From Oscillospiraceae bacterium (GTDB lineage: Bacteria; Bacillota; Clostridia; Oscillospirales; CAG-272), in NCBI GenBank assembly GCA_015064805.1, contig SVRN01000009.1, positions 2,614-66,613 of the forward strand: DNA of 64,000 nt. The letters run 5' to 3'. How positions within the stretch are numbered: the stretch's first letter is position 1; every line of letters begins with the position of its first letter. Of the stretch, positions 735-63,747 are shown in pieces. The notes under the pieces are model-generated. The model was given only the letters and a program-made list of their open reading frames with translations, was not told the origin of the DNA and made no database searches. Both the position numbers and the translations under genes were made by a program.

Positions 735-1281
735 GATTGCGTAGCCGGACGCGCGTACAGCTTCGCGCCGCGCTGTGCCGGTTTTTTTATGCCACTTCTT
801 GGCGCGTCCCAAGAAGTGGCCAAGAAAGACGCCAAGACGTTCCCTCTTGGAACTCCCTTTCCGTGCCGCGCTACAAAGTGGAACAGGAGAAAGACATATA
901 ATTTTATTATACATCTCTCGTCATTTTGCCACCACGCGCGGCAGGAGGAGAAAATAAAATCGTTTTTGTTTGAAATTTTTTGATTATTGGGTGCGTTGCA
1001 GGGAGCAAAAAATTGTTGCTAACTTGCTTGCGTGTCACTTACGTGAGTGCGGCTTTTTTTAAGCCGCGCTCGCAAGCGCTGAACATAAAAGACTTCGCGC
1101 CACAATCAGAAAAACTTTAGTTTTTCGTGGCGCGTTGCGGGGTTCTAAGGGGTATTAGACCCCTTAGTCCTCTTTCTTGGTTCGTTCTTTCTCAAATGAG
1201 AAAGAATGAACATCAAACCCGCACAGCGCGGCGCGCAGCTGTACGCGCGTCTGTAGGAGAAACTGTATAAAATTTAGTTTT
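735..1281 (+). repeat. hairpin-mosaic element (HME) copy 1
   Basis: Inverted arms 747-781 and 1218-1251 match at 32 of 34 positions. Contains the C hairpin 791-820, the G block TTGCCACCACGCGCGGCAGG and the K hairpin CTAAGGGGTATTAGACCCCTTAG. Confidence 0.85.
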
Positions 1282-1774
1282 TCCTTCTAAAATACTTCAC
1301 CGCCGCAGGAATATACACGATCAGCGATCCGATCAGCCCTGCCAGCAGAACGGCAAACAGATGAACGAAGCTCTTTTCGCATATTGCCCGCCATGCGCCC
1401 AGCACCAGATACGCGGGAATGGTCATGATAACGTAGGTCAGCGGATGGTCGTGAAGCCGCTTGGCGGCAAGCGCTGCGTATACCGCGATGCCAAAGAAGA
1501 TAAGCGGCAAGAGTGATATACCAACGCCCGTCAGCGCGTCCAAAATCAAGCCGCCGACCATGCCGAGAATACCCCCGACGATGGGCCCGCGCTTCCAGCC
1601 GATCAGCAGTATCAAAGCCGCCGTCAACTCGACCGTCGCGCCAAAAACAGGGATATAGGACAAAAAGCTCGCTTGCAAAATAGCAAACAGCCAGACAAGC
1701 AAAACGAACAGCACCCAGCCAAGGGGCGTCGGCGGCTCGTGTGTCAGTCGATGATCTCGGATCTCATGATCCAT
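1274..1774 (-). CDS. mreD: rod shape-determining protein MreD-like membrane protein
   Basis: 166-aa polytopic hydrophobic ORF overlapping the mreC stop by 11 nt. The call rests on size, hydrophobicity and mreC linkage. Confidence 0.7.
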   Translation of the reverse strand: MDHEIRDHRLTHEPPTPLGWVLFVLLVWLFAILQASFLSYIPVFGATVELTAALILLIGWKRGPIVGGILGMVGGLILDALTGVGISLLPLIFFGIAVYAALAAKRLHDHPLTYVIMTIPAYLVLGAWRAICEKSFVHLFAVLLAGLIGSLIVYIPAAVKYFRRKN

Positions 1775-2696
1775 CGCCGCTCACCTCCCCGCTTGCCTGA
1801 TCGGAGTTTTTATCGTTTTGCTCGGTGTTGCCCGAGTCATCGTTTTCCGTTTCATTTTCATTTTTCTCGCCCGTGACGATCATCAGCGTCGCCGTCGAGG
1901 AGTAATCCGCGTACAGCCGTACGTACGCGTAGGGCGATCGATCGTACGAATCTACCCCAATCTCGACGATCTCACCGATGAGAAGACCGTGGGGATATTT
2001 TTCACCGTATCCGCTGGTCACGATCACGTCGCCGACCTGCAAGGCCGTTTGGTGATCCACGTTGGCGTCCAGATATTGCAGCTTGGCGTGCGTCTGACCC
2101 GCCTGAAGGCCGCACAGCGTACCGTTGATGCCCGAGCGAACGACCGTCGCGCCGATGAACAGCGTTTCTTCCTTGAGCGTCGTGACCTTGCAGGTCGAGG
2201 CGGAGACCTCACTGACCGTGCCGTACAGTCCTCCTGCGCTCAAGACGGGCATGCCAACGGCAATACCGTGGCGGCTTCCCTTGTTCAGCGTGACCGTCCG
2301 ACCCGATGGGTCGTTGTTGTAAATGATGCTCGCGTCAGTCAACGCAAGGGTGGGCTGCTTATCTTTCAGCTCGAGATATTCACGCAGCTGGTCGTTTTCT
2401 TGCTTCAGCTGTTCCAGCGCGGCGAGCTGTTCGCGCAGGGCGGCAAGCTCTTGATTGGCATCGTTGAGCTGTTGTTGTAATTTTTCATAATCGTCACCGC
2501 TTGCCAGCGCGTCGGAGGCGCTTTTTCCTGCCGCGCTGAACAATTTCGTCAGGGGGGAGGAGATGGTGGTGATGGTATTGCGGATGAAGTCCTTGGTGCT
2601 CGTGAGAGATAGGATGGTGGGGATGAGGCAAAGGAGCAGGGCAATGCAGGTGCAGAGGATCAATTGTTTTTTTAAGGATGGTTTTTTTCGACGCAT
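1764..2696 (-). CDS. mreC: rod shape-determining protein MreC
   Basis: N-terminal TM segment, a coiled coil (QQQLNDANQELAALREQLAALEQLKQENDQLREYLELK), then an MreC beta-domain (GMPVLSAGGLYGTVSEV...GDVIVTSGYGEKYPHGLLIGEIVEI). Start moved to ATG 2696 (MRRKKPSL) behind AAAGGAG. The longer ORF-track start lies in repeat DNA. Confidence 0.85.
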   Translation of the reverse strand: MRRKKPSLKKQLILCTCIALLLCLIPTILSLTSTKDFIRNTITTISSPLTKLFSAAGKSASDALASGDDYEKLQQQLNDANQELAALREQLAALEQLKQENDQLREYLELKDKQPTLALTDASIIYNNDPSGRTVTLNKGSRHGIAVGMPVLSAGGLYGTVSEVSASTCKVTTLKEETLFIGATVVRSGINGTLCGLQAGQTHAKLQYLDANVDHQTALQVGDVIVTSGYGEKYPHGLLIGEIVEIGVDSYDRSPYAYVRLYADYSSTATLMIVTGEKNENETENDDSGNTEQNDKNSDQASGEVSGDGS

Positions 2697-2730
2697 TGGA
2701 GCTCCTTTCTTTTTTATTTTGACGAGAATA

Positions 2731-3228
2731 AAATTTAAATTTATACAATAGTTTCTACGGACGATCATACTGCGAGCCTTCGGCTCGCGCTGATCTGTAC
2801 CGGTAATTGATGTTCATTCTTTGCCACGCGGCAAAGAACGAACCAAGAAAACGCGCCCGGACGTTCCCTCCGGGGCCTCCCTTTCCGTGCCGCTCTTCAA
2901 AGAGTAGCAGGAGAAAAACATAAAATATTCTAATGCATCTCCCGCCACGCAGATACCACGAGCGGCAGATATGGGGAGCAAGAAGTTTTGCGGGTTTCTT
3001 AAGGGCATTAGGCCCCGAATGAAATTTTGCGTTCTATGGGAAGAATTTTGCTTTGCAAAATTCTTCGAGGTGGGCAAACTGAACTTTAGAAGTATCGTTG
3101 TCACGAAAGCCCACCATATCTTCGCCTATTCTTTGCGGCAAGGCAAAGAATGGGCATCAAATGCGATACAGCGCGGCGCGAAGCTGTACGCGCGTCTGTA
3201 GGAGAAGACGTAGAAAATTTAGTTTTCC
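2731..3228 (+). repeat. HME copy 2 (short variant)
   Basis: Same end, C and D modules (CTACGG..., GTTCATTCTTTGCCACGCGGCAAAGAACGAAC, CCCGGACGTTCCCTCCGGG) and the same right end ...CTGTACGCGCGTCTGTAGGAG. Confidence 0.8.
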
Positions 3229-3532
3229 TTTTCTCTCCCCGCTTTGCCACCACGAGCGGCAGATATGGGGAGCAAAAAGTTGTAACAATTCTATTTTTGT
3301 GGAGCGTAATGGGTAGGGGGACGGAGTAAATCTGCGGAGCAGATTTATGCCGAGCGTAAGCGAGGAGAGGGCCCCATGAGCTCGCGGGAGCTATGGTTTG
3401 GAATAGCGTATTCCTTTCCCCTTACAAAGAAAGGAGTAGTCGCAAGGGCGAACATTTCTATTCCCTTTTTATTAAAGTTTTTGAGGGGTGCAGGGGAACT
3501 TTTTTCAAAAAGTTCCCTTGCGCGTCCTTTTT
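3229..3532. repeat. HME-related tail element T1, directly 3' of gyrB
   Basis: Shares four ordered blocks with 10040-10330: CCACCACGAGCGGCAG, AATTCTA..TTGTGGAGCG, AGTCGCAAGGGCGA.CATTTCTATT, and AAAGTTTTTGA plus the palindrome GGAACTTTTTTCAAAAAGTTCC. Confidence 0.7.
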
Positions 3533-6189
<2,657 letters not shown>

Positions 6190-6438
6190 TTATTCCTCAC
6201 ATCTTCCCAACAACGCCGTTGACGAAAGCTGGGAAAAGCAAATTTTGTTATTTTCATCTTCTTGATACAAAACAAACGCACGGGGCAATTCCTCGCATGC
6301 GGCACTCACCTCGCCGCGGGTCTCGGCCTTGGCCAGATACTGCCGCGTGGTGCGCGAGATGGTCGCGTTGTCAATATCAAAAATACCGATGATCTTCTTT
6401 TGTCGAATATTTTTATTGCTCCCTACGTGCAGATACAT
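6190..6438 (-). CDS. remB: DUF370 / RemB(YaaB)-like small protein
   Basis: 82 aa, IIGIFDIDNATISRTTRQYL motif, and the conserved position between recF and gyrB seen in Bacillota. Confidence 0.7.
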   Translation of the reverse strand: MYLHVGSNKNIRQKKIIGIFDIDNATISRTTRQYLAKAETRGEVSAACEELPRAFVLYQEDENNKICFSQLSSTALLGRCEE

Positions 6439-8751: not shown

Positions 8752-8815
8752 TTTTTAAGTCCTCCGAAATTTTAAAATTTGGATGTATGTGGAATATTTT
8801 TTGATTACAAAGGGA

Positions 8816-9533
8816 TGGATGGAATTTTAAACTACTTCTTCTACGGACGATCATACTGCGAGCCTTCGGCTCGCGCTGATCTGTACCGGTTTTTAGATGT
8901 TCATTCTTTGCCACGCGGCAAAGAACGAACCAAGAAAACGCGCCCAGGCGTTCCCCCTGGGAACCCCCTTTCCGTGCCGCGCTACAAACAAGAACAAGAG
9001 AGATCACATATTATGTTTTAATGCCATTCTTCAAGTGTAGCCACCACGCGCGGCAGGCAGAGAGAGCAAGAACGTTTTGCTTTCTTGGTAGGGGCTGGCG
9101 CCTCGACAGCCCGTTTTGGTGACAGACGAAGAAACAAAATCGTTTTCGTTTGAACTTTAGTTAAAAATGGGGTGCGTCGCAGTTAGCAAAAACTTTTTGC
9201 TTTTATGCTTGCGTGCGTCTTTCGTGTTGGTGTTTTTCTTTAAAACACCAACGCAAAGGCTGAAGATGTTTGTTTTCGCGCCACTATCAGAAAAATCTGT
9301 GATTTTTCGTGGCGCGTTGCGGGTTTCCAAAGGGCATTAGGCCCTTTGGCGCGTTTCTTCCGCCACTTCTTGCCGCATAGCAAGAAGTGGCACAAAGCCG
9401 CACAGCGCGAAGCCATATTTCGCAAGCGAAATAGCAAGTTTTGCTCGCCCGCTAAACACGGGCGTCATGCAAGCATGAACACAAAACTAGCTGTACGCGC
9501 GTCAATAGGAGCAGTTTCAAAAATTTTCAATAC
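8816..9533 (+). repeat. HME copy 4 (between the dnaN start and oriC), with an 81-bp Y module inside its right arm
   Basis: Near-identical to copy 3 over most of its length. Carries extra sequence at 9410-9490. Confidence 0.85.
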
Positions 9534-9599
9534 AATTTTTTTCCTACCCTCACCCTCTTGAAAGAAAGAATTGAAAGAATGAATTTAGTAGTATTAATA

Positions 9600-10035
9600 G
9601 TAGGCCCTGTTGATTATGTGGAAAGTCAAATTTTCCTTATACTTCAACACTTTTTCTGCCATTGATCCCATATTTTCCCGTTGAAAACCATACTTGTTTT
9701 CTGTGGATTAAAATTGGAAAACCAAACGAGAAAAATCGACTTTAGAAAAAGCGGCTCGAAAAAGTGAATGTTTCGCTTGAAAATGAGAAGAAAAAGTGCC
9801 AACTGTGGATTATTTTGTCGCCTTGTGCTGTGGAAAAGTAAACCAAACATACGACACGCGACAGCGACATTTCAAGGTTATACGCACCGTGTGGGAAAAT
9901 GAACAGACAGGGCAAGAGTATTGCGGTGCAAGGAAAATATTTGAAATCGATTGTAACTGTAAAATTCGTTTTGTTGGGAAAATTGAAGTTTTGATAAGTC
10001 TGTGGAAAAGTGTGTGGAAACTGTGGAAAAAGTGG
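9600..10035. promoter_or_regulatory. oriC DnaA-box cluster (dnaA-dnaN intergenic)
   Basis: At least eight same-orientation boxes in AT-rich DNA: TGTGGATTA at 9702 and 9804; TGTGGAAA(A/C/G) at 9617, 9829, 10001, 10013 and 10022; TGTGGGAAA at 9890. The consensus is TGTGGATAA (reverse complement TTATCCACA). Confidence 0.75.
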
Positions 10036-10039
10036 GGGA

Positions 10040-10330
10040 AATTTGATTGTTAATAACTTCTCCTACGGTTTGGCGCGCCACCACGAGCGGCAGGCGTGGA
10101 AAAACTAAATTTGTTAAAGCAATTCTAATATTGTGGAGCGGATGGGGAGGGGGCCCCAGAAGCTTGCGGCAGCTATTCTGTCGAACAGAGCACGCTCTTC
10201 CTCTTACAGAGTCAGAAGAAGTCGCAAGGGCGAGCATTTCTATTTTTTCTTTGAAAGTTTTTGAAGGGTTGTAGGGAAACTTTTTTCAAAAAGTTTCCCT
10301 AACGCGCTCTCGCGCCCCTCGCGCCCTTCG
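10040..10330. repeat. HME-related tail element T2, directly 3' of dnaA
   Basis: See T1. It ends in TGTAGGGAAACTTTTTTCAAAAAGTTTCCCT, which is GTAG followed by a palindrome. Confidence 0.7.
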
Positions 10331-43568: not shown

Positions 43569-43574
43569 TATTCA

Positions 43575-50722: not shown

Positions 50723-50734
50723 GGAGGTGACGAT

Positions 50735-51640
50735 ATGACTGAACAAAAGACTGTAACCATGCAGGAAAGAGATATGCAAAAGGTCAACGTCCGTCAGCGC
50801 GTCGTTAAGATCGCGGTGCAGATCATGCTGTACACCTTCCTTGTCCTGATGGCTCTGATTATTCTGTTCCCCTTCTACTTTATGCTCGTCTCCTCCGTCA
50901 AGAGCCTGGCTGAGTATAAAGAGCCCATCGTGTCGTTCGCACAAACGCTTTGGCCGCGAAAGGTCATCCTTTACAACTACGTTGAGGCCTTCAAAACCGC
51001 CAACCTTGGCCGTCTGTTCCTCAACACCATGTACGTCGGTATCGTTTCCACGCTGCTCTCTCTCGTCATCACCGTGCTGACCGCCTTCGCGTTCGCACGT
51101 CTGGAGTTCAAGGGCAAGAACGCGCTGTTTGCCGCTCTGCTTGCGACCATGATGATCCCCGGTGAGCTGTTTACCATCACCAACTACGCGACGGTCAGCG
51201 CCTTGCATTGGAAAAATACCTATACGGTACTGATCGTTCCCTTCCTCGTCAGCGTCTTCTACATCTACCTGCTCCGCCAGAACTTCTTGCAGATCCCCAA
51301 CGAGCTGTATCTGGCCGCCAAGGTAGACGGTACGAGCGATCTGAAATATCTGTGGAAGGTCATGATCCCGCTGGCACTCCCCTCGCTCATCTCCATCACC
51401 ATTCTGAAAATGATGGGCGCGTGGAACTCCTACGTCTGGCCCCGACTGGTCGCTAACGACGAGGCATACCACCTGATCACCAACGGTCTGCGTAATGCCT
51501 TTACCGATGCGAAGGGTGAGGTCAATATCCCCGTTCAGATGGCCGCCGTTGCCATCGTATCCTTCCCGCTGTTCCTCGTCTTCATCTTCCTGCGTAAGTA
51601 TATTATGAAGGGCGTTTCGAGAAGCGGTATCAAGGGTTGA
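50735..51640 (+). CDS. ABC importer permease (MalG/UgpE-like)
   Basis: EAA loop LYLAAKVDGTSDLKYLWKVMIPLALP. Confidence 0.9.
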   Translation: MTEQKTVTMQERDMQKVNVRQRVVKIAVQIMLYTFLVLMALIILFPFYFMLVSSVKSLAEYKEPIVSFAQTLWPRKVILYNYVEAFKTANLGRLFLNTMYVGIVSTLLSLVITVLTAFAFARLEFKGKNALFAALLATMMIPGELFTITNYATVSALHWKNTYTVLIVPFLVSVFYIYLLRQNFLQIPNELYLAAKVDGTSDLKYLWKVMIPLALPSLISITILKMMGAWNSYVWPRLVANDEAYHLITNGLRNAFTDAKGEVNIPVQMAAVAIVSFPLFLVFIFLRKYIMKGVSRSGIKG

Positions 51641-51713
51641 TCGATAATAACAGTCCCCCCGACTGATTATTATACAAATATTTTTCAAACAAAAGAAAGA
51701 GAGGATTCTAATT

Positions 51714-53135: not shown

Positions 53136-53141
53136 TTTCTT

Positions 53142-54521
53142 ATGATGATGTTTACTCATTCCACCGGGCGGGGTATCCCCGCCCGCGCGGGAGTGAAGCT
53201 GATGGCTTTGCTCCTGGCGATGCTTATGACGCTGGCTTGCGTCGTATCCTGCGGCCCCGGTAGCGAGGATCCCGCGGATCAGCGCGAGCATATCGACTAC
53301 GTCGCTGACACCAAGCTGGATATGACCAGTGAAAGTCGCAAGATCGAGGCGACCGTCAAGTCGTACATCGACGGCGACACCACCCACTTTTACGTCAAGG
53401 AATCCGAAGAGTTCCCCGAGGGCGTCGTCAAGGCCAGATACCTTGCCATCGACACCCCCGAATCGACGGGTAAGCTTGAGGAGTGGGGAAAAACCGCAGC
53501 AGCGTTCACCAAAACGACGCTGAAAAATGCCGCTGCCATTATGCTGGAGTCGGATACCGACGTCTGGAATAAGGACAACAACGGCAGACACCTGCTCTGG
53601 ATCTGGTACAAGAGTACGGCAGACGCCGAGTGGCGTAACCTGAACATTGAAATTCTGCAGTCCGGCTACGCGATCGCGTCCAACTCGGGTCAGAACCGCT
53701 ACGGTAAGACCTGTCTTGCCGCGCTGGCGCAGGCAACGGCTGAAAAGCTGTACGTCCACTCGGGCGAAAAGGACCCCACCTTCCCCTACGGTGCCGCAAC
53801 CGAGATCACCATCAAGGAGCTGCGCACCAACCGCGAGGAGTACGAGGGTGTCAAGGTCGCCGTTGAGGGCATTATTTCGCAGGATACCAACGGCACGCTC
53901 TACGTCGAGCAATACGACGAAGAGGACGAGCGTTGGTACGGTATGCAGGTATTCTACGGCTACAATCTGGCAACCAGCGCCAAGAGATTCCTCAAGGCAG
54001 GCAACCGCGTTCGCATCGTCGGCACCTTCCAGTATGCCGAGGTCGTCAACGCTTACCAGATCGCAGGTCTGGAATACGACCAGATGAAGCCGGGCGATCC
54101 CGCCTATACCAGTCTGATCGAAAGCGAGCAGACCATCCCCTACACCGAGATCGTAAGTCTGTCCGACTTTATGACGGGCAAGACCGAGCTGACGGTGGGC
54201 GAAGAGAAGGTTTCCTTCGATAATAACGAGCTTGCACTTTATACCTCCGTTACCCTCAAGGGCCTGACCGTGGTTGATACCTGGACGACCCAGACGGGCG
54301 ACAACGCAGGCGCGATCTCGCTGACCTGCGAAAAGGACGGCGTGCGCATCACCATCCGCACCATCAAGCTGTACGAAAACGGTGAGCTGGTCAAGGCCGA
54401 ACGCTTTATGGGCAAGACGATCGACGTCGTTGGCGTCGTCGACTCCTTTACGCCCGAGGGCTCGACCGATGCGCAAAAGCAGATCAAGGTATTTACCCTG
54501 GCTGCCATTACGATTCACTGA
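53142..54521 (+). CDS. secreted/lipoprotein thermonuclease (SNase) fused to C-terminal OB-fold-like domains
   Basis: Lipobox CVVSCG. The SNase core is IDGDTTHFYV...KARYLAIDTPES...NGRHLLWIWY...EILQSGYA, with the R/D/T/E catalytic pattern retained. Confidence 0.88.
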   Translation: MMMFTHSTGRGIPARAGVKLMALLLAMLMTLACVVSCGPGSEDPADQREHIDYVADTKLDMTSESRKIEATVKSYIDGDTTHFYVKESEEFPEGVVKARYLAIDTPESTGKLEEWGKTAAAFTKTTLKNAAAIMLESDTDVWNKDNNGRHLLWIWYKSTADAEWRNLNIEILQSGYAIASNSGQNRYGKTCLAALAQATAEKLYVHSGEKDPTFPYGAATEITIKELRTNREEYEGVKVAVEGIISQDTNGTLYVEQYDEEDERWYGMQVFYGYNLATSAKRFLKAGNRVRIVGTFQYAEVVNAYQIAGLEYDQMKPGDPAYTSLIESEQTIPYTEIVSLSDFMTGKTELTVGEEKVSFDNNELALYTSVTLKGLTVVDTWTTQTGDNAGAISLTCEKDGVRITIRTIKLYENGELVKAERFMGKTIDVVGVVDSFTPEGSTDAQKQIKVFTLAAITIH

Positions 54522-54571
54522 TTTATTTTTTTAATTAATTAAATCAAAATCAACAAGGAGAAAGTAAAATC

Positions 54572-57500
54572 ATGAAAAAGTTTCTTGTAATCCTCATGGT
54601 TCTGGCGCTTTGCGTGCTGACTTTTGTCGCTTGCGAGCCCCAACAGCCTGTGGATCCTCAGCCTGAGGTTACGTATGACGCAAACGCTGCGGTAACGTAC
54701 GTTTTCAACCTCTACAAGGATAGCACCACCAAGCAGGAAGACTTCGAGGTGACTGCAACCGTTCAGGTCGGCGGCATTGCTTACGACATCGAATGGACCG
54801 CCAGCGAGGGCGCAACCGTCACCAAGAAGGACGATAAGACCTATACCGTTGACATTGACGAAAAGTCCGCTACGGGCTATGAGTTCACCCTGACGGCAAC
54901 CGCTAAGGCTGCTGACGGTACCACCGCCCAGAAGGCGATCAAGTTCAACGTTCCCAAGTACGAGGTTCTTTCCTTCGAGCAGTACATGGCTGCAAAGGAG
55001 GATGACACCGTTCTTATCGAAGGTATCGTCGTTGCCATCAACTCCAAGGCCGCAGGCAATACCAGAAACCATCTGTTCCTGGCAGACGCTAACGTCGTTG
55101 GCGGCTACTACTCCTACCAGATGGACGCTGACCCCGTTGCTGACCTTGGCATCGAGGTCGGTATGACCGTTTCCGTCTCCGGTCCCATTGCTCCTTACCA
55201 CGGCATGCAGGAGATCAAGGGCGGTACGGCTAAGATCGTTGACGCTACCAAGAAGGAGTACGCTCCCGTTGACATCACCGACAAGTTTGCTGCAGGCGAG
55301 TCCCTGAAGAACTACGTCGGTCTGCCCGTAACCATCAAGGGCGTTGAGATCGCCGGCCAGGAGCTGGGCGGCACCTCCGATTACCTTAAGTTCAAGCTGA
55401 ACGAGGAGATCTCTTACATCCGTACCTACGTTACCGACTTCCCCACCACGCTTAAGATCGTCGTGGGCGAGGACGGCACCACGAGCAGCCCCGATAAGAC
55501 CACCATCGACGAGGCTCACGCAGAAAAGTTCGGCTGGAAGGCTAACGTTACCGGTATTCTGGTTCTGTACAACAGCGCACCTTACCTCATTCCTATGGAC
55601 ACCGGCTGCTTCGAGTACCTGGAAAAGGTTGAGAAGACCCCCGAGCAGAAGATCGCTGACACCCTGGAGGGCCTGAAGCTCGACGCAAGCTTCACCTCCG
55701 ATGCAGTCGTTGAGCTGCTCGCAGCAGGCGCCGCTTATCCCGAGGTTACTCTGACCTGGACCTCCAACAGCGAGCACGCTGTCATCGCTGACGGCAAGCT
55801 GACCATCACCGTTCCCGATGCGGCTACCGAGGCTATCGTAACCGTTACCGCAACCTGCGACGGCAAGACCGCTACCAAGGAATTCAAGATCAAGCTCTCC
55901 AAGTCCGTAACTCCCGTTGCTGACATCATCGCTCTTGGCGCATCCAAGGAGCACAACACCTACACCGAGGAGAAGTACCTCGTTGCAGGTATCATTACCG
56001 AGGTTTACAACACCCAGTACGGTAACATGAAGATCACCGACGATCAGGGCAACGTCCTGACCATCTACGGTACCTACAGCGCAGACGGTGCAGACCGTTA
56101 CGACGCTATGGCAAACAAGCCCGTTGCTGGCGACTACGTCGTTATCTTCGGTATCGTTGGCCAGTACAACGGTACTCCTCAGGTGAAGAACGGTTGGATC
56201 ATGTCCTTCACCACTCCCACCTCCGTTAAGGATACCATCGATCTTGGCGCATCCAAGGAGCACAATACCTACACCGAGGAAAAGCACCTGGTAACCGGTG
56301 TCATCACCGAGGTTTACAACACCCAGTACGGTAACATGAAGATCACCGACGCTGAAGGCAACATCCTGACCATCTACGGTACCTACAGCGCAACCGGTGC
56401 TCTCAGATACGACGCTATGGAAAAGAAGCCCGTTGCAGGTGACACCGTTACCATCTACGGTATCGTTGGTCAGTACAACGGCACGCCTCAGATCAAGAAC
56501 GGTTGGATCGTTGCTAACGTTGCAGGCGCAGGCGAAACGCCCGATCCCGATCCCGAGCCCTCCGACGATCCCGCTCCCGATTCTACTCTGACCGTTGAGC
56601 AGGTCATCGCTCTTGGCGCATCCAAGGAGCACAACACCTACACCGAGGGCAAGTACTACGTCACCGGTGTGATCACCGAGATCTACAACACCCAGTACGG
56701 TAACATGAAGATTACCGACGATAAGGGCAACATCCTGACCATCTACGGCACCTTCGACGCAACCGGTGCAAACCGCTTCGACGCTATGGCTAACCAGCCT
56801 GCTGTTGGCGACACCGTTACCATCTACGGTATCGTTGGTCAGTACAACAATACCCCCCAGATCAAGAACGGTTGGATCACCGAACAGAAGCCTGCCGCTC
56901 CTGAGGCGCCCTCCTTCATCGAGGTTCCGATCGACAGCGATAAGTGGGATCAGTGCAAGCTGAAGCTGGACTTCCAGGGAATGCCCATGTCCCAGCACAG
57001 AAACTGGGCTGCAGGCAGCTCCCTCCATGTAGGCGCCTTCATGTATCGCTACGGTGAGATCACTGCCGTCGGCGAAGCGCCTGTCATTGATATTTCCGGT
57101 ATGAAGTATATCGAATTCGACGTTTACGTTTCCCATATCGACGTGATTGCTGAGGCTCTGTTCAGCTTTGAGCTGACCTCCAGTGGAGCCTCCGATAAGG
57201 AGGAGAACTGCAAGAAGTTCTATGGTAAGGACACCGGTTGGGTTGTTGGTTGGAACCACGTGAAGTGGAATCTGAGCGATTTCACCGAGCACGGTCCCGA
57301 CGGCAAGCCTATGGACGCTACCAAGTGGAACTTCATCCGTTGGTACAGCGATTCCACCATCACCGTTGGTGAAGAAAAGCTGAAGGTTGCGATTGCTAAC
57401 ATCAAGTTCACCAACGACGATTACGTTGAAGAGGAAAAGCCTGAGGAGCCCGAGACTCCCGAGACTCCCGAGACTCCCGCAACCGGCAACAAGGCTGACT

Positions 57501-58006
57501 TCAACACCTTCTACGACGGTGCGGCAAAGACCCAGTACGCAACCCATACGACGGCAGGCGGCTGGACGGTCAACAATGCGCAGGTCATCATTGGTACCAA
57601 CGACGCTGACGTAGCAAACACCCAGACCGGTGTGTTCTCCTTCATCGGCGGCGCAGGCACCTCTGCTGCCGTTATTAACGGTAAGACCAGTGCAGTCGGC
57701 AGCATCGTTTCCCCCACGCTGGCAAACGGTATTGCTTCTCTGAGCTTCCAGTACGGTCATCCTTACTCCGAGGCCAATGGTGTTAACATCACCATTACCA
57801 TCAAGAAGGGTGGCGAGGTTGTGGCAACCAAGGACCTTGTAATTGCAGCCGCTGAGGTTGCACAGAATACGGCATACAGCTACACCTGGACGCTGGATAC
57901 GGCTGTTGATGGCGAGTTCACCATTGAGATCGTTAACAACTGCCCTACTGCTTCTTCCAAGAACAAGGACAGACTTGCTATTTGGGATATCACCTGGAGC
58001 AAGTGA
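54572..58006 (+). CDS. 1144-aa surface lipoprotein with OB-fold-like domains, including three tandem repeats of about 100 aa
   Basis: Lipobox LTFVAC. Carries three copies of ALGASKEHNTYTEEKY.V.G.ITE.YNTQYGNMKITD..GN.LTIYGT.....RYDAM...P..GD.V.I.GIVGQYNGTPQ.KNGWI. Confidence 0.88.
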   Translation: MKKFLVILMVLALCVLTFVACEPQQPVDPQPEVTYDANAAVTYVFNLYKDSTTKQEDFEVTATVQVGGIAYDIEWTASEGATVTKKDDKTYTVDIDEKSATGYEFTLTATAKAADGTTAQKAIKFNVPKYEVLSFEQYMAAKEDDTVLIEGIVVAINSKAAGNTRNHLFLADANVVGGYYSYQMDADPVADLGIEVGMTVSVSGPIAPYHGMQEIKGGTAKIVDATKKEYAPVDITDKFAAGESLKNYVGLPVTIKGVEIAGQELGGTSDYLKFKLNEEISYIRTYVTDFPTTLKIVVGEDGTTSSPDKTTIDEAHAEKFGWKANVTGILVLYNSAPYLIPMDTGCFEYLEKVEKTPEQKIADTLEGLKLDASFTSDAVVELLAAGAAYPEVTLTWTSNSEHAVIADGKLTITVPDAATEAIVTVTATCDGKTATKEFKIKLSKSVTPVADIIALGASKEHNTYTEEKYLVAGIITEVYNTQYGNMKITDDQGNVLTIYGTYSADGADRYDAMANKPVAGDYVVIFGIVGQYNGTPQVKNGWIMSFTTPTSVKDTIDLGASKEHNTYTEEKHLVTGVITEVYNTQYGNMKITDAEGNILTIYGTYSATGALRYDAMEKKPVAGDTVTIYGIVGQYNGTPQIKNGWIVANVAGAGETPDPDPEPSDDPAPDSTLTVEQVIALGASKEHNTYTEGKYYVTGVITEIYNTQYGNMKITDDKGNILTIYGTFDATGANRFDAMANQPAVGDTVTIYGIVGQYNNTPQIKNGWITEQKPAAPEAPSFIEVPIDSDKWDQCKLKLDFQGMPMSQHRNWAAGSSLHVGAFMYRYGEITAVGEAPVIDISGMKYIEFDVYVSHIDVIAEALFSFELTSSGASDKEENCKKFYGKDTGWVVGWNHVKWNLSDFTEHGPDGKPMDATKWNFIRWYSDSTITVGEEKLKVAIANIKFTNDDYVEEEKPEEPETPETPETPATGNKADFNTFYDGAAKTQYATHTTAGGWTVNNAQVIIGTNDADVANTQTGVFSFIGGAGTSAAVINGKTSAVGSIVSPTLANGIASLSFQYGHPYSEANGVNITITIKKGGEVVATKDLVIAAAEVAQNTAYSYTWTLDTAVDGEFTIEIVNNCPTASSKNKDRLAIWDITWSK
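55905..56885 (+). repeat. three in-frame tandem coding repeats (about 309 and 369 nt apart) within the 1144-aa lipoprotein
   Basis: CTTGGCGCATCCAAGGAGCACAA recurs at 55934, 56243 and 56612. Confidence 0.9.
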
Positions 58007-58030
58007 GTAAAGACTTAGGTCAATAAAGAA

Positions 58031-58067
58031 AGGAACCGCATCTTCGGATGCGGTTCTCTTTTTTTGT
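58031..58067 (+). terminator. intrinsic terminator after the 1144-aa lipoprotein gene
   Basis: GAACCGCATC, loop TTCG, GATGCGGTTC, then TCTTTTTTT. Confidence 0.8.
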
Positions 58068-58076
58068 TTGGCGGGA

Positions 58077-58857
58077 GTTTTATCGACTTCTCCTCGGGAC
58101 GCGCGTACAGCTGACGCGCCGCGCTGTGCCAACTTGGATGCCACTTCTTGGTGCGCCCCAAGAAGTGGCGGAAGAAACCAGATTTCGGCAAGCCGAAATC
58201 GCAAGTTTGCTTGTTCGCGGTCGCGAACATCGCGCAAGCGCGGGCGCAAACATTGCGCGCCAAAGGGCCTAATGCCCTTTGGATTCCCGCAACGCGAAAA
58301 GTCGCGGCGCTTCGCTCTGCTCATTTTTTCGCGAAGGGTTGCATCTTCAGCTTTTGCGTTGGCGTTTTAAATAAAAACGCCGACACGGAAGGCGCACGCA
58401 AGCGAAACTGCAAAAGTTTTTGCCATCTGCGACGCACCCGAGTCAAACAAAATTTCAAGCAAAACGATTTTGTTTTCTGCGCCTGCCGCCAAAACGGGCT
58501 GTCGAGGCGCCAGCCCCTACCGAGAAAGAAAAAGCTTTTTCTTCCTCCGACTGCCGCGCGTGGTGGCAAGGCGGCGGGAGATGCAGCAGGGTAAAGATGT
58601 CTTTCTCCCCAGTCTACCTTGTAGCGCGGCACGGAAAGGGGGTGCCCAGGGGGGAACGCCTGGGCGCGTTTCTTGGTTACTTCTTGCCGCGTGGCAAGAA
58701 GTGACACGAAAAGCTGGCACACCGAGCGCGCGAAGCCATATTTCGCAAGCGAAATAGCAAGTTTTGTTCGCCCGCTAAACACGGGCGTCATGCAAGCATG
58801 AACACAAAACTAGCAGGGCGAGGCCGTAGAAGAAGTTGCTGAAAATTCAGCTAAACT
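58077..58857 (-). repeat. HME copy 12 (reverse orientation, with X, REP-2 and Y modules)
   Basis: X lies at about 58170-58262, REP-2 at 58496-58520 and Y at 58733-58813. Confidence 0.85.
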
Positions 58858-58879
58858 CCCCCCTCCCCGTCGCCCTCTA

Positions 58880-58908
58880 TTGACTTTTCCCCCGCCATGC
58901 TCTATAAT
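58880..58908 (+). promoter_or_regulatory. sigma-A-type promoter for the barnase-like RNase gene
   Basis: TTGACT, 17-nt spacer, TATAAT. Confidence 0.6.
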
Positions 58909-58947
58909 ATAAATAATGTAGAAAATCCCCGAAAAAGGAAGTTACCC

Positions 58948-60447
58948 ATGAACGCTCTGAAAAAACTCACCCTGCTGCTCCTGGTCCTCGCCACGCTGAC
59001 AAGCGCCCTGCTTGGCTGCCAGCGCCCCGACCAGCCCCAGCCCCCCGAAATCGATCTGCCCACCGCCATCGACATCATCGGCGCGGATCGCGTTTCGCTG
59101 ACCCTCGGAGACGAGCTTCAATTGAGAATCGACCAAAGCGAAGAGATATTGTCCATGATCAAGTGGACAGCCACGAGCGACTGCGTCAGCGTCAGCGACA
59201 GCGGCCTCGTCACCACCAACCGCGTCGGCACCGTGCTCGTCACCGCCACACTGGGCGAGCTGAGCGACAAGGTGCTCATCACCGTCGTTGACACCACCAA
59301 CCGCCCCGAGTCCGTCACCCTTACCGCAGAAAAAACCACGCTGATGATCGGCGAGTCGACCGACCTGATCGTGTCCGTCGCCCCTGCAGGCGCGGCATCG
59401 GGCGCCATTTTCAGCGTCACGAGCGGCTCTGATGTGATCACGGTTCAGGACGGCAGAGTCGTCGCCCAAAAGGAGGGCACTGCCACCGTCGTTGCGACCG
59501 TCGCAGGTGTTGCGAGCGAGGAGCTGACCATCACCGTCGCTCCTGCCGTCGACCCCTACGAGGGCATGAGCGCGGACGAGTTTTACGCCAATTACACCGT
59601 CGCGGACAGCTATCTGGACGCCTACTACCGCACCCAGCACGGCTTTATGTCGGGATCGCTGACCGTTCCCGATCAAGCACCCGTGCTCTCCGAGTATCAG
59701 CCCATGCGCGACGGTATGCTCATCCGCAACCGCGCGACGCGCTACGAGGACGACGGCAACACCTACGTCGTGGTGAATGCTTATGGGCAGGAGGTCATGG
59801 AGATCTACCGCGGTGCGGCCTACATCACGCTGGAGGAGGTTGCCGCTTACGTCTTCGCCTTCGGCGACGTGCCCGCCAACTATTCCGCTACCAAAAAGAC
59901 CAAACCGACCCAGAGCGTCTGGGGCATTTACCTGCGCGTCAATCACACCCAGTTCACGGGTGATACCTCGCGCTACCCCTACGAGCCCGAGCTGCCCAAC
60001 ATCAGCGGCTGTGGCGGAGATTTCGTTTATTACGAGATCGACATCGGTACGACGGGCAACGACTGCGATCCCGCCTATCGCCCTGCCCTTTACAACAACG
60101 GCGTGTCCATCATCCGCGGCGCCTCCCGCATCGTCTACGCCCGCTTTGATAAGAACAACAACCACATCACCGAGCCCGACGAAAAGTTCGTCTTCTACAC
60201 CTACAACCACTACAACGATTTTCAGGAATATCTGAACTATTTTGGCGGCTGGGGCGAGATGTTCGGTAATATCACGGGCGGCGGTGTGATCTCGGATAAG
60301 CAAAACTGCAATCCCACGCCCTACGTGCCCGTCTGGCGGGGAGATCTGTCCGAGGCTACGCTTCAATCTCCCACGCGCGAGCAAAACGACTACGTCGAGA
60401 TCGTCTGGTGCCTGCCCGTCGAATGGACGGAGCGCAAGCACGCGTAA
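58948..60447 (+). CDS. lipoprotein with Ig-like (Big_2-like) domains and a C-terminal barnase/RNase Sa-family ribonuclease domain
   Basis: Lipobox ALLGCQ. The C-terminus aligns by eye with barnase: VAAYVFAFGDVPANY / VADYLQTYHKLPDNY, FVYYEIDI / TWREADI (catalytic Glu), RGASRIVYA / RNSDRILYS (Arg), YTYNHYNDF / KTTDHYQTF (catalytic His). Confidence 0.85.
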   Translation: MNALKKLTLLLLVLATLTSALLGCQRPDQPQPPEIDLPTAIDIIGADRVSLTLGDELQLRIDQSEEILSMIKWTATSDCVSVSDSGLVTTNRVGTVLVTATLGELSDKVLITVVDTTNRPESVTLTAEKTTLMIGESTDLIVSVAPAGAASGAIFSVTSGSDVITVQDGRVVAQKEGTATVVATVAGVASEELTITVAPAVDPYEGMSADEFYANYTVADSYLDAYYRTQHGFMSGSLTVPDQAPVLSEYQPMRDGMLIRNRATRYEDDGNTYVVVNAYGQEVMEIYRGAAYITLEEVAAYVFAFGDVPANYSATKKTKPTQSVWGIYLRVNHTQFTGDTSRYPYEPELPNISGCGGDFVYYEIDIGTTGNDCDPAYRPALYNNGVSIIRGASRIVYARFDKNNNHITEPDEKFVFYTYNHYNDFQEYLNYFGGWGEMFGNITGGGVISDKQNCNPTPYVPVWRGDLSEATLQSPTREQNDYVEIVWCLPVEWTERKHA

Positions 60448-60506
60448 CAGAATAGAAAAAACGCCAAGACAAGGGCTCCTTCTCATAAGGAAGTTTGATT
60501 TCTCCT

Positions 60507-60533
60507 TGTAGGGACCGGCGTCCTCGACGGTCC
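60507..60533 (+). repeat. REP-1 hairpin, left boundary of the cargo cassette
   Basis: TGTAGGGACCGGCGTCCTCGACGGTCC. Confidence 0.9.
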
Positions 60534-60605
60534 ATCACAATAATTGTATTGCAGAAAACAAAGATTAACCCCGACAGATTTTTTAATCTGTCGGGGTCAA
60601 ATTTA

Positions 60606-60944
60606 TTAGCCAATATCAAAAAAGCAAGGAACTAAATGATGCGGCTTATACTTATCAATAGTTTCTACAATATGGGCTCGGATTTCTTCTAAAGAACAAT
60701 GTTTCATATTTCTGTCATATATCATTGTTTCAGCCCACATATATTCGGGATTTTCTTTATCACCGTATCCTCCACCACCTAATGAATCCTTTTGCTTGTC
60801 TATCAAGACGTATTCAAACCAGAGGATCTCGTTTACAAAACCTCCACACTCAAAAAGCAATTCTACAAACTCGCTCCAGTTTCTAAATATCAAATCCGAA
60901 CAAACTTTATTTTCTTCTATGTATTTTTTTATTTTGCCGTCCAT
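60606..60944 (-). CDS. hypothetical 112-aa cytoplasmic protein (cargo of a REP-bounded cassette; candidate RNase inhibitor)
   Basis: ATG 60944 sits 7 nt behind GAGGTG. The ORF is visibly AT-rich in a GC-rich window. No family was recognised with confidence. Confidence 0.6.
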   Translation of the reverse strand: MDGKIKKYIEENKVCSDLIFRNWSEFVELLFECGGFVNEILWFEYVLIDKQKDSLGGGGYGDKENPEYMWAETMIYDRNMKHCSLEEIRAHIVETIDKYKPHHLVPCFFDIG

Positions 60945-61257
60945 AATAACACCTCGTTTATTATCGTTAATCGCCAGTTTCGCATCTGTATTACAAATAC
61001 TTCGGGCAAAGCCCATGCCGCTACGGTTGCGCGTCCTAAGGCTCCCTCCGGGAGGGAGCTGGCGCCGCAGGCGACTGAGGGAGAATGCGTTACACGAAGG
61101 TTTTCACAAATCGAAAGTCACGCAGGTTCCTTCCGTCACGCTACGCGTGCCACCGCATCCGCTTGCGGATGGCATCTCGGAGGGAGGCTTTTCGTTAGTC
61201 TCATTATAACACAGATCGGCAGAGAAAACAAGTTCTCTGCCGAAAATTATGTGTCGC

Positions 61258-61284
61258 GGACCGTCGAGGACGCCGGTCCCTACA
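61258..61284 (-). repeat. REP-1 hairpin, right boundary of the cargo cassette (inverted)
   Basis: GGACCGTCGAGGACGCCGGTCCCTACA, the exact reverse complement of 60507-60533. Confidence 0.9.
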
Positions 61285-61332
61285 ATTTGTAAACATCCTT
61301 ATGAGAACGAGCCTAACCGTCCCGCGTTTTCT

Positions 61333-61836
61333 TCATTTTCCCGTCATTCTTTTGAGCACGTCCATAAACTGCTCGCTCGCTTGCAGGCGAAGGACGATCC
61401 TCTCGCCGTTTTCTTCAAACAGAAGATAGACCACGCGCGAGGCGAAAATGTCGGGGCAATAGGAATGGATGCGGTCGGCGTGATAGGCGCGGCGAACGGC
61501 CTTTTCCTCTTTGGCGGCGCACACGTCGTACTTGCAAAGGTCGCTGAGCAAAAGTCGGCAGATGGTCGTTTGCTTCTGGCCGCGTTGCTCGATTACGGCC
61601 AGCTCGTCACGCTCGTCCTTGTCCGATTTTTGGATCGTGTAGGTGTATTTGACCAGCGTGCTGCCAAGCAGCACGACGGTGACCATCATCAGCACGATGC
61701 CGATCGTCTGGAGCACCGCGCTAAAGTCGAAAAAGCGCGCGCAGGTAAAGACGGCAATGCCGCATAGACCAAATAACAGCGCCAGAATTGCGGCGGCGTG
61801 ATTTTTTCTCGTGGGCGTTTCGGAAAAATAGATCAT
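61333..61836 (-). CDS. hypothetical two-TM membrane protein
   Basis: 167 aa, two N-terminal TM helices and a soluble C-domain. Lies downstream of rarA. Confidence 0.6.
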   Translation of the reverse strand: MIYFSETPTRKNHAAAILALLFGLCGIAVFTCARFFDFSAVLQTIGIVLMMVTVVLLGSTLVKYTYTIQKSDKDERDELAVIEQRGQKQTTICRLLLSDLCKYDVCAAKEEKAVRRAYHADRIHSYCPDIFASRVVYLLFEENGERIVLRLQASEQFMDVLKRMTGK

Positions 61837-61860
61837 GATACTTCCTTTCGATGATCGGAA

Positions 61861-63090
61861 TTACTTCTTTTTGGCCCGCTCGTGCACTGCATCCCAGTAG
61901 GCCGCGGCCGCGCTCTCCTGCTTGTTGGGGGCGGGCTTGTAATACTGCTTGCCTCGCAGATCGTCGGGCAGATATTGCTGGGGAACGTAATGGTCGGGAT
62001 AGTCGTGCGGGTAGCGGTAGCCCTTAAAGAGGGGCGATTGCAGATGCGCGGGAACATTGACGCCCTTGCCGTCGTTGATGTCCTGCATGGCGGCGTCCAG
62101 TGCCAGGTACGCGCTGTTGGATTTGGGCGAGGTCGCCAGCATCAGCGCGGCGTTGATCAGCGGAATACGTCCCTCGGGCAGACCCAGCTCGACGGCCGAT
62201 TCACAGCAGGCGCGGGTGATCATGGCCGCTTGCGGATAGGCAAGGCCGATGTCCTCCGAGGCGATGACCTGCAGGCGGCGGCAAAGAGCCAACAGCTCGC
62301 CTGCGGCGACCAGCTTGCCGACGTAAAAGGCGGTCGCATCGGGATCGGAGCCGCGAATGGACTTTTGCAGGCAGGAGAGCAGATCGTAGTGGGTGTCGTC
62401 GTTGAAATTGCCCACCGAGGTGGCAAAGGAGGTCATATCCTCCTCGGAAAGCTCGTCGTCGGCGGCAAAGAAGGTATTTTCAAGCAGGCCGATGGCGCGG
62501 CGGACATCACCGCCCGTGGCGCGGCCGATCTTCTCGAGCAGCTCGTCCGAGGCGGTCTTGGCCGTTCCCGACTCGCCGTTGAGATAGTCCAGCGCGCGGC
62601 GCAAAGCAGGCAAAATCGCCTTGGGCGACACGGGCTTGAACTCAAACAGGCTCGCGCGGGACAAAATGGCGTTGTAAACGTAGAAATGGGGGTTTTCGGT
62701 GGTGGACGAGATCAGCGTAACGCGACCGTCCTCCATATATTCGAGCAGGGATTGCTGTTGCTTGCGGTTGAAATACTGGATCTCGTCCAGATAGAGCAGC
62801 ACGCCGCCCGCGCCGAAGACGTTGTCCGTTTCGGCCAGTACGGCCTTGACGTCGGCAAGGGAGGCCGAGGTTGCGTTCAGGCGGCGGAACAGCATACCCG
62901 ACTGCGCGGCGATGATCTCGGCGGCGGTGGTTTTGCCGATGCCGGGAGGGCCGTAGAATATCATATTGGTGATGCGTCCGCCCTCGACCATGCGGCGGAT
63001 GACACCGCGCGGGCCGAAGAGATGTTCTTGTCCGACGATATCGTCGAAGGTCTTGGGACGCAAAAGGTCAGCGAGCTGAGCGTTTCGCAT
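61861..63090 (-). CDS. rarA: replication-associated recombination protein A (MgsA/RarA AAA+ ATPase)
   Basis: GPPGIGKTT, LLYLDEIQYFNRKQQQSLL and the C-terminal MgsA domain (YLALDAAMQD...NVPAHL). Confidence 0.93.
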   Translation of the reverse strand: MRNAQLADLLRPKTFDDIVGQEHLFGPRGVIRRMVEGGRITNMIFYGPPGIGKTTAAEIIAAQSGMLFRRLNATSASLADVKAVLAETDNVFGAGGVLLYLDEIQYFNRKQQQSLLEYMEDGRVTLISSTTENPHFYVYNAILSRASLFEFKPVSPKAILPALRRALDYLNGESGTAKTASDELLEKIGRATGGDVRRAIGLLENTFFAADDELSEEDMTSFATSVGNFNDDTHYDLLSCLQKSIRGSDPDATAFYVGKLVAAGELLALCRRLQVIASEDIGLAYPQAAMITRACCESAVELGLPEGRIPLINAALMLATSPKSNSAYLALDAAMQDINDGKGVNVPAHLQSPLFKGYRYPHDYPDHYVPQQYLPDDLRGKQYYKPAPNKQESAAAAYWDAVHERAKKK

Positions 63091-63174
63091 GGTGGACTCC
63101 TTATTGATGTGAATATACTATATTTTACCATAGGTTTTTGGGAAATGCAAGGGGGTTTGCGGGGGATGCGGAGA

Positions 63175-63747
63175 GTTTAGCTGGATTTTCAACAACTTCG
63201 CCTACGGGCGCACACTGCTGCGCGCGTGCGCTGTACCGGCTTTGATGCTACTTCTTGGCGTTTCCCAAGAAGTAGCCAAGAAGGAAACCCGGCCGTTCCC
63301 TCCGGGGCCTCCCTCCATCCCTCCGGCCTTTCATGGCCGTCGGGGCTGTTTGTCTCAGCAAGCTTCCTCCATCTTGGGCGCATAAGCGCACGCCCAAGAT
63401 GGGTTCGCATGGCAAAAGCTTTTGCTTTTCCGTCCTGTTTGAACTTTCGTCTATCACAGGGAGAGAGGCAAAAACTAATGTCTTTTGCTAAAGCGGAGTC
63501 CGAGCGACTCCCGTGAGTGCGACTTTGTTTAAGTCGCGCTCGCAAAAGCTGAAGATGCTCGCTTTTGCGTCGTGCTGCGCGCTTGCGCGCCCGCAAAGAC
63601 GCACTGCGGGAATCCAAAGGGCATTAGGCCCTTTGGCGCGTTTTTTCGTCCTTTTTGTCGCGTGACAAAAAGGACAACACACATACACCGCCGCGCGTTG
63701 TGCGGCGGCAAACAAGAGAAGAAGATGTAGCAATTTTAATTTTTATC
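63175..63747 (+). repeat. HME copy 13 (divergent centre)
   Basis: Both arms and the I, J and K modules are present. The centre is replaced by unrelated hairpins, for example CATCTTGGGCG...CGCCCAAGATG. Confidence 0.75.

Follow-up and report, generated by a model that had tools for sequence, protein, structure and literature searches.

Here, we show that 13 intergenic gaps in a 64,000-nt stretch of DNA from an Oscillospiraceae bacterium (contig SVRN01000009.1, positions 2,614–66,613; hereafter the window) are occupied by one family of large hairpin-built repeats, which we call mosaics. Each copy is a foldback element, in which two arms flank a conserved core of about 300 nt. An original prediction, made from the sequence letters alone, had described a single modular family whose blocks recur in the same order in these gaps, and three kinds of search bear this out. 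Three of the short blocks quoted there are found 10, 8 and 11 times at up to 3 mismatches, and 0 times in shuffled sequence. Self-BLAST of the window marks 9.4 kb as self-similar, located at essentially the 13 intervals that had been aligned by hand, plus a few small unrelated repeats. A profile hidden Markov model (HMM) built from an alignment of the 13 copies (A1) recovers all of them, with E-values of 1e-64 to 1e-177. Also as predicted, copies occur in both orientations and are strictly intergenic, with 0 interrupting a called gene, and several run right up to a stop codon, as at remB, whose stop codon (6190–6192) directly follows the tip AGCTAAAC, the last nucleotide of which is 6189.

The 13 copies sum to 8582 bp, corresponding to 13.4% of the window (about 9 kb, or one seventh, had been estimated by hand) and 65% of its non-coding DNA. 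In the 9.1 kb past the right end of the window, on an independent ENA contig, lie two more full copies. Density was measured on these ~73 kb of one species, the other metagenome-assembled genomes (MAGs) being represented by fragments; over this tract it is very high, and it is for this tract that the predicted unusual density holds. Six independent metagenome contigs match window positions 338–21738, or parts of this interval, at 99.99–100% identity, elements included. The repeats are therefore not a local assembly artefact, a concern raised along with the prediction.

The family, which the prediction did not recognize, appears to be undescribed, judging from Rfam, plasmid and phage records and the literature. 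The whole window gave no Rfam match at the gathering threshold, and a permissive E-value search of 20600–25300, which holds two elements, gave weak matches only (≤24.8 bits, against gathering thresholds of 37–108 bits). Known large structured RNAs (OLE, GOLLD, ROOL, HEARO and others) are among the families without a match, no covariance model scoring near its gathering threshold. BLAST against PLSDB plasmids and GenBank phage records yielded no match to the mosaic, and full-text searches on intergenic hairpin MITEs (miniature inverted-repeat transposable elements) of Clostridia and on interspersed repeats of Oscillospiraceae surfaced no matching paper. The anatomy, however, is of a known kind, namely that of non-autonomous foldback elements with long terminal inverted repeats (TIRs), combined with a modularity like that of BIME and BOX. 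A coding hypothesis was rejected: the longest open reading frames (ORFs) of the copies disagree in frame and length, and no conserved ORF was found in the mosaic copies.

The arms, overlooked as such in the prediction, are long TIRs of 120–180 nt built from nested hairpins, and the element spans 400–870 bp. The two arms of one copy match each other inversely over ~105–180 nt, and because the ends are such long inverted repeats, every copy also matches the HMM on the opposite strand. From the tip inward, each arm comprises a variable G-run, a small covarying palindrome (GCTGAATTTTCAGC), the segment ACTTCTTCTAC (CTTCTAC), a GC-rich outer hairpin, a run of three to six T residues, a 12–13 bp hairpin with several alleles (CCACTTCTTGG..CCAAGAAGTGG, GTTCATTCTTTGCC..), and CCAAGAAA; long arm forms carry an additional GGGCATTAGGCCC hairpin. 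In the core, additional hairpins are connected by linkers of strong conservation (TTGCCACCACGCGCGGCAGG, GGGGTGCGTCGCAGATAGCAAAA, CGCAAAAGCTGAAGATGC). In total, an element holds about 10 different hairpins, at a GC content of 50%. Two modules are optional: module X, an 85-nt hairpin set inserted in the loop of the outer arm hairpin, and module Y, a GTAG-tagged REP. In a short form, model positions 17–274 are joined directly to 470–617, leaving no core. Folding is stronger than that of shuffled sequence on both strands (z = −5.9 and −7.4). CTAC stands on the 5′ side and GTAG on the 3′ side of the outer hairpin, the main hairpins having no 5′ GTAG, and both arms carry inward-facing, terminator-like signals made of a hairpin plus a T-run. 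Across ~680 kb of loci, the element profile gives ~240 matches (the window contributes 13 copies in 64 kb), and an HMM of the arm only gives 315, with inward-facing pairs 300–800 bp apart.

Comparison of copies shows that they change mainly by homologous recombination among themselves, and that they do so by three routes: hairpin "alleles" are swapped, the core is inverted relative to the arms, and deletion reduces copies to halves and 50–60 nt stubs. The conserved linkers are the breakpoints. With respect to the first route, orthologous copies differ by whole hairpin modules, drawn from a few discrete perfect-palindrome alleles that are common to loci and species. In a 55-copy core alignment from six species, 19 of the 31 predicted core pairs show compensatory types and almost none is broken. 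Between orthologs, 34 stem pairs have changed on both sides and still pair, versus 48 other changed pairs; substitution amounts to 16.4% in stems and 19.0% in non-stems, meaning that stems are not clearly slower. This pattern points to replacement of whole modules through gene conversion, or else to templated palindrome repair, rather than to purifying selection acting site by site. A case in point is the copy at 63162. In another strain (L101), the MgsA protein is the same, the DNA through this copy's left arm and core is 99.9% identical, and the right ~200 nt of the copy have been swapped for a different allele of every module, the switch point lying in the invariant linker GCAAAAGCTGAAGATG. 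The same strain (L101 1–3470, versus window 63500–63930) carries a 3.1-kb cassette of four genes, encoding a GntR regulator, an ABC ATPase and two further ORFs without Pfam hits, between the element tip and the pfkB promoter; the cassette is bounded by a repeated AATTTTTTC(A/C)AAAA motif. As for the second route, about seven orthologous loci were compared with JAZLDE, a species of 90% identity, and at two of them the core is inverted relative to the window, with arm tips and flanks collinear: 5645–6070, in the gyrB–remB gap, and 24514–25051 (ortholog L057). Half copies, arm-less copies and stubs, products of the third route, all occur. In a JGI contig (L100 1–1760), two element right halves stand head to head after a second copy of a PTS EIIC/EIIB gene; this may be a genuine rearrangement between inverted copies, or else the repeat was misassembled.

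How old is the family, and how is it inherited? A scan of one genome per species for the hairpin pattern CYWARGGGYATTAGRCCCYTWRG matched at least 87 stretches, and every match sits in a mosaic copy. The matches listed all come from six MAGs of sheep, buffalo and other ruminant guts, labeled Oscillospiraceae, Clostridia or Eubacteriales, save for one on a 1-kb contig binned elsewhere; the same element recurs in at least six ruminant-gut MAG species. In genes flanking the elements, the nearest species are JAZLDE and parts of RGIG5545 (~87–93% nucleotide identity to the window), followed by SIG664 and other parts of RGIG5545 (~78–84%). A comparison of orthologous gaps across strains and species, as suggested with the prediction, finds the comparable gaps of JAZLDE, RGIG5545 and SIG664 occupied or holding remnants. 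Two RGIG5545 gaps seemed empty, those between dnaN and oriC and upstream of the Rce1-like gene. Each keeps ~55–64 nt of tip-like sequence, so both are remnants of internal deletion and not virgin sites, and they were rejected as a means of defining termini or target-site duplications (TSDs). Orthologous copies are 81–87% identical, the third codon positions of adjacent genes being 69–84% identical. Paralogs within the window are ~73–90% identical (about 80%), with exact patches of 60–104 nt. No insertion distinguishing the window from JAZLDE, or one of the six metagenome strains from another, was seen. Together, these data indicate an old, vertically transmitted family with no recent burst, whose copies, since its expansion, have been inherited vertically at fixed intergenic sites. 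Such a site typically has a stop codon or terminator on its upstream side and a promoter or ribosome-binding site (RBS) on its downstream side. At 58007–58948, for example, the order is stop codon, native intrinsic terminator (58033–58066), element, TTGACT-17-TATAAT promoter (58881–58909), RBS and ATG. The only IMG/VR match (L094 21–723) is a full mosaic at one end of a 10.1-kb contig that bears terminase large subunit and portal genes; the copy would lie either inside the phage or at a prophage–host junction.

We think it probable that the mosaics are lineage-specific, non-autonomous foldback elements, with the architecture of MITEs, the modularity of BIME and BOX, and the persistence of REPINs, which spread in an ancestor and have been reworked by recombination ever since. 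What sets the family apart is its size, its very long arms built of hairpins, modules that swap alleles, a core that can invert and a locally extreme density. Its multiplication would date to the ancestor of a ruminant-gut clade of Clostridia and would have used an enzyme supplied in trans. Because TSDs are missing and the ends are dominated by hairpins, a single-strand mechanism of the HUH/Y1 type, as for REPINs, would fit at least as well as a DDE transposase. Given the inward-facing hairpin-plus-T-run signals in the arms, a copy probably acts as a bidirectional transcription stop, and it may also offer portable homology for moving gene cassettes.

A number of observations weigh against this reading. 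No enrichment of 2–8 nt direct repeats was detected at any offset for 54 arm pairs, the copies being old and their tips set to about ±2 nt. In ~680 kb of loci, no TIR pair lies more than 1 kb apart, no transposase stands between arms, and no long repeats at ≥95% identity turned up; these results support the non-autonomous character of the elements, but they also mean that no parent element was found. Mobility has left no trace as insertion polymorphism between species at ~90% identity or among the six metagenome strains, and since the seemingly empty sites are deletion remnants, the exact termini are set by conservation alone. The linker blocks are near-invariant across six species, beyond what simple decay would leave, and their conservation could reflect host function instead of selfish or recombinational maintenance. 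Finally, in certain gaps the closest consensus promoter stands upstream of the element (30724–30752 for the copy starting at 30760, where it is the sole one), and the entire element would then belong to a 5′ leader.

Among known systems, the mosaics can be likened to several without matching any. They share with BIMEs and the REP–REPIN–RAYT systems of Enterobacteria and Pseudomonas an organization as extragenic palindromic mosaics, a foldback inverted doublet, a lack of TSDs, vertical persistence and gene conversion, as well as a RAYT in the genome and true GTAG-tagged REPs within some copies. They differ in that the unit is 400–870 bp with ~10 hairpins, whereas REPs are 25–40 nt and REPINs ~100 nt; in that most mosaic hairpins carry no GTAG/CGTC tag in the canonical position; and in that the RAYT here carries a different hairpin class and looks recently acquired. 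Mosaic density is about 10 times that usually quoted for REP/BIME. MITEs such as the Correia elements of Neisseria and RUP of S. pneumoniae likewise have TIRs, no coding capacity and strong secondary structure (definition from PMC3049150); they too are intergenic, over-represented at the 3′ ends of genes, and occasionally have terminator or promoter effects. Their TIRs, however, are ~26 nt rather than 120–180 nt, the mosaic is 3–6 times larger and, at 50% GC, not AT-rich, and no TSD, parent insertion sequence or insertion polymorphism was found for it. BOX elements of S. pneumoniae and the BOX-type elements of S. suis also consist of ordered modules between two mutually pairing end modules, with internal modules optional or variable; BOX is a composite of modules whose mobilizing enzyme is unknown (PMC3049150). 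The mosaic, unlike BOX, has many more modules, alternative alleles for each and an invertible core. This comparison is one of organization, a sequence relationship not being expected given the different host clade. Lastly, foldback elements and invertible segments with long inverted repeats resemble the mosaics in having long inverted arms around a unique core, which inverts by recombination between the arms. Foldback transposons are eukaryotic, and bacterial invertons have short repeats and a dedicated invertase; the mosaics have no such short repeats, and no dedicated invertase was seen among the window proteins scanned.

The prediction stated that no copy contains a transposase. None indeed lies inside a mosaic, but it missed a transposase-family gene elsewhere in the window, along with the GTAG-REP module present in 5 of the 13 copies. 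The gene, a RAYT (REP-associated tyrosine transposase), occupies 14774–15364 on the plus strand, within a unit (14710–15491) that has hairpins on either side of the gene and a minus-strand GTAG-REP (15467–15490) at its end. Its product matches NCBIfam NF047646 with an E-value of 2.9e-12; the score of 46.7 bits falls under the 80-bit cut-off, as expected from the protein's insertions. Against E. coli TnpA-REP (PDB 4ER8), the E-value is 3.8e-6, with the HUH (NHIHIM) and catalytic tyrosine (YIYENP, for YIxxNP) motifs aligned, and for one homolog the source gives the name "REP element-mobilizing transposase RayT". Inside the reading frame itself lie an inverted pair of GTAG-REPs (GTAGGGACCGGCGTCCTCGACGGTCC; 14891–14916 on the plus strand, 15143–15168 on the minus strand) and three 27-nt tandem partial REP copies (15062–15136). 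Solo REPs identical to the internal one are found at 60508–60533 (+) and 61258–61283 (−). Module Y is a covarying variant of this REP (GTAGGGGCTGGCGCCTCGACAGCCC), found at one fixed internal site of the mosaics and in this species only. Thirty-seven of 53 GTAG-REPs lie far from mosaics, and related genomes possess REP variants, REPIN doublets and arrays of their own.

Several features of this RAYT deserve mention in their own right. The in-frame REPs flank the segment that codes for the HUH motif and encode conserved peptides, IVGTGVPDGP and GPSRTPV(P)T. Of 2889 homologs at E ≤ 1e-5, the best 120 span 166–239 aa, and homologs differ mainly in the tandem number of the two peptides (1–4 and about 1–9). 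In SIG664, a 37%-identical RAYT (L064 7054–7566) has a different REP pair at equivalent positions. To our knowledge, REPs embedded in the coding sequence of a RAYT have not been described before.

If the mosaic were a giant REPIN or BIME, its hairpins would be RAYT substrates, and RAYT, by cutting and joining single strands, would both disperse and preserve it. A RAYT with its HUH and tyrosine motifs is indeed at hand, REPs of its class occupy a fixed docking site in 5 of the 13 copies, related genomes contain canonical REPIN doublets and arrays, and no TSDs were found. Moreover, CTAC and GTAG stand beside the outer hairpins, the whole element is predicted to fold back as single-stranded DNA in REPIN-like fashion, and one preprint describes REPIN–RAYT systems as vertically inherited and long-lived (bioRxiv 10.1101/2022.05.22.493013). 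We nonetheless consider this account unlikely. The REPs of the RAYT match module Y and the solo REPs and have no match to arm or core hairpins; apart from module Y, the mosaic hairpins are not found in or beside the RAYT unit. Tag polarity is opposite, CTAC...GTAG in the mosaic versus GTAG...CTAC in a REPIN, and most GTAG-REPs are remote from mosaics. The GC content of the RAYT unit is 42.7%, that of the window 54.4%; at the orthologous site, RGIG5545 has ~36 nt in place of the unit, and an 86–90% DNA-identical RAYT (L095/L096 9996–10486) resides in an organism of 45–46% GC with no mosaic within 17 kb. On these grounds of sequence, the RAYT looks recently acquired by horizontal transfer. RAYTs have been described as vertically inherited single-copy genes, and recent transfer would be unusual. 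In view of its low GC, its absence from RGIG5545 and its mosaic-free relative, we treat the RAYT and its REPs as a second repeat layer that colonizes the mosaics. The RAYT is thus a candidate enzyme for the REP module, only poorly tied to the mosaics and not demonstrated to drive them.

Next in probability comes the idea that the mosaics are cis elements with a function for the host, whether as terminator or insulator, mRNA stabilizer or processing site, nucleoid-protein site, or structured RNA expressed from the core. Placement lends this some appeal. At remB, the tip abuts the stop codon at 6190 and no other terminator is present; in some gaps, the element is directly upstream of the next gene, its tip just 25–45 nt from the RBS. 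The near-invariance of the linker blocks in 55 copies from six species, a hairpin structure kept with many compensatory types, the inward-facing hairpin-plus-T-run signals of both arms, and the persistence of copies at orthologous sites in spite of bacterial deletion bias all point the same way.

The orientation of copies in tandem gaps was analyzed with a gene caller based on codon usage, since GC-rich shadow ORFs lead a naive longest-ORF caller astray. Of the 10 such copies in the window, all point the same way relative to transcription; in other genomes, the split is 7 versus 7, and an orientation rule was dropped as a general property. The documented core flips are a further reason not to treat the uniformity in the window as a rule. 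Nor did the asymmetry of G–T versus A–C mismatches in stems give a clear signal as to which strand is transcribed, the only mismatch excess being one conserved T–G pair at the base of the central hairpin. No conserved internal promoter was found in the core, and Rfam gave no match. Orthologous copies diverge at about the rate of third codon positions, stems evolve no more slowly than non-stems to any clear extent, and sister species truncate, invert or reduce copies to stubs without visible compensation. The perfection of the palindromes could arise without selection, through templated repair or gene conversion. On balance, a host function of this kind is doubtful.

Less probable still, but of interest for what it would imply, is that the mosaics constitute an architecture retained by the host: bidirectional insulator or terminator modules deployed genome-wide, with arms and linkers serving as standard recombination junctions by which genes and operons move between intergenic "sockets". 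The 3.1-kb GntR/ABC cassette at an element tip in one strain would fit, as would the bracketing of mreB and of the mreCD unit by mosaic copies. mreB (19663–20637) lies 17 kb from mreC and the mreD-like gene (1274–2696), which stand between gyrB and gyrA, and this arrangement suggests that mreB and mreCD were relocated by recombination between the bracketing copies. Were it true, such an architecture would amount to a homologous-recombination analogue of the integron, spread over the chromosome.

It is very unlikely that the mosaics are invertons, whose arms would act as recombination sites and whose core flips would change the expression of flanking genes. Inversion of the core at two of about seven loci relative to a species of 90% identity would be in keeping with that idea. 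However, the six same-species metagenome contigs show one orientation at all four elements they cover, a scan of proteins covering part of the window's genes recognized no invertase or recombinase, the core has no conserved promoter, and arms of 120–180 nt are enough for ordinary homologous recombination. Spurious repeats created by assembly or chimerism can be dismissed: the head-to-head right halves and duplicated PTS gene of L100 may be a misjoin, but independent JGI and ENA assemblies give the same elements at 99.99–100% identity, copies are ~80% identical to one another and not identical, and orthologous copies exist in other species.

Compactness is the norm in bacteria, whose interspersed non-coding repeats usually make up ~1 percent of the genome. 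The mosaics, a single gene-less family, account here for ~13% of the sequence and for two thirds of what lies between genes; they occupy the same sites in species 10–20% apart, and their copies are still swapping parts. If this density proves to be genome-wide, this uncultured rumen lineage would provide a natural system in which to study how bacteria cope with large palindromic repeats and exploit them, would show repeats driving operon shuffling and failure of metagenome assembly, and would help to test whether hairpin mobilization of the HUH type can build elements far bigger than REPINs. In practical terms, the mosaics explain fragmentation of MAGs at intergenic regions in this clade, and they can serve as a clade-specific marker.

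The individual copies illustrate the range of forms. At 716–1283 (+), a full mosaic separates the minus-strand gene gyrA, whose start codon is at 678, from the mreD-like gene and mreC; it scores 475 bits in nhmmer over model positions 16–618, and its arms, 722–827 and 1173–1278, match as TIRs. The copy at 2725–3281 (+) is a short form, with the left arm joined to the right arm without a core (model 12–274 plus 471–618) and an extra 50-nt fragment at 3232–3281 that matches model 222–271; short forms like it recur in other genomes. Full elements follow at 5544–6189 (+), between gyrB and remB, with module Y at 5782–5850 and a tip that abuts the remB stop codon, and at 8810–9532 (+), between dnaN and the cluster of DnaA boxes, with modules Y and X. 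The copy at 18969–19587 (+; model 3–462), upstream of the Rce1-like gene and downstream of mreB, has no right arm. Between mreB and maf, a full element with the long left arm form occupies 20709–21478 (+); its ortholog is present in JAZLDE (L022) and RGIG5545 (L012). Another full element, at 24434–25118 (+), runs right up to the ABC_transp_aux (GldG-like) gene, whose stop codon is at 25119.

Farther along, the full element at 30760–31660 (+) has extra inserted modules and a solo tip fragment (30760–30795); it is preceded by the consensus promoter at 30724–30752 and followed by a plus-strand gene's RBS and start codon (ATG, 31687). A minus-strand element at 32995–33640 fills a convergent gap beside the atp operon, and a second one, at 44376–45202, is full, with module Y and a terminal TIR fragment at 45159–45202. 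Only the right half is present at 47399–47652 (+; model 360–613), where the JAZLDE ortholog is full length. The remaining two are a full minus-strand element with modules X and Y (58066–58868), between the terminator at 58033–58066 and the promoter at 58881–58909, and the most diverged copy, a full element at 63162–63744 (+), between mgsA and the pfkB promoter. Promoters and 5′ leaders beside elements (58869–58948, 18935–18968 and others) share a C-rich coding-strand pattern, TTGACTTTTCCCCC...TATAAT, with CCCCATCCCCCTCC before the RBS. This pattern recurs in several species and may represent a further semi-repeated module.

The window has a GC content of 54.4% and a coding density of 79.5%, and its gene content is that of an origin region: gyrA, mreD/C, gyrB, remB, recF, dnaN, a cluster of DnaA boxes and dnaA, with copA, PBP2, mreB, maf, the atp operon and others further along. 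No tRNA or tmRNA genes were found in the window. The DnaA-box-like cluster (TTTTCCACA, TTTCCACA, TAATCCACA), at ~9533–10035 between dnaA and dnaN, is conserved in four species and is presumably oriC. A mosaic directly separates this cluster from the RBS of dnaN, and a deleted arm remnant lies beside it at ~10035–10100. The sign of the GC skew depends on gene strand (window 8000–32000 versus 42000–62000), with positive values over minus-strand genes and negative values over plus-strand genes; the coding strand is therefore rich in C relative to G. No origin-type switch in skew is visible at dnaA at the scale of the window, where the skew merely tracks gene strand and so says nothing about the position of the origin or any effect of the replication strand.

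Finally, the window contains other repeats. A second family, of ~160 nt and with the hairpin GGGAACTTTTTTCAAAAAGTTCCC, is present at 3364–3524 and 10146–10306, just downstream of the stop codons of gyrB and dnaA, and has full or partial BLAST matches in ~20 other loci, often beside GTAG-REPs. A third repeat, of ~140 nt, forms an inverted pair 10 kb apart (29253–29392 and 39098–39241) in gaps downstream of two minus-strand operons, with two more matches in other genomes. Internal DNA repeats at 55914–56509 and 56592–56879 fall within a gene of 1144 aa (54572–58006; weak ExeM/NucH-like match), and presumably correspond to repeated protein domains.

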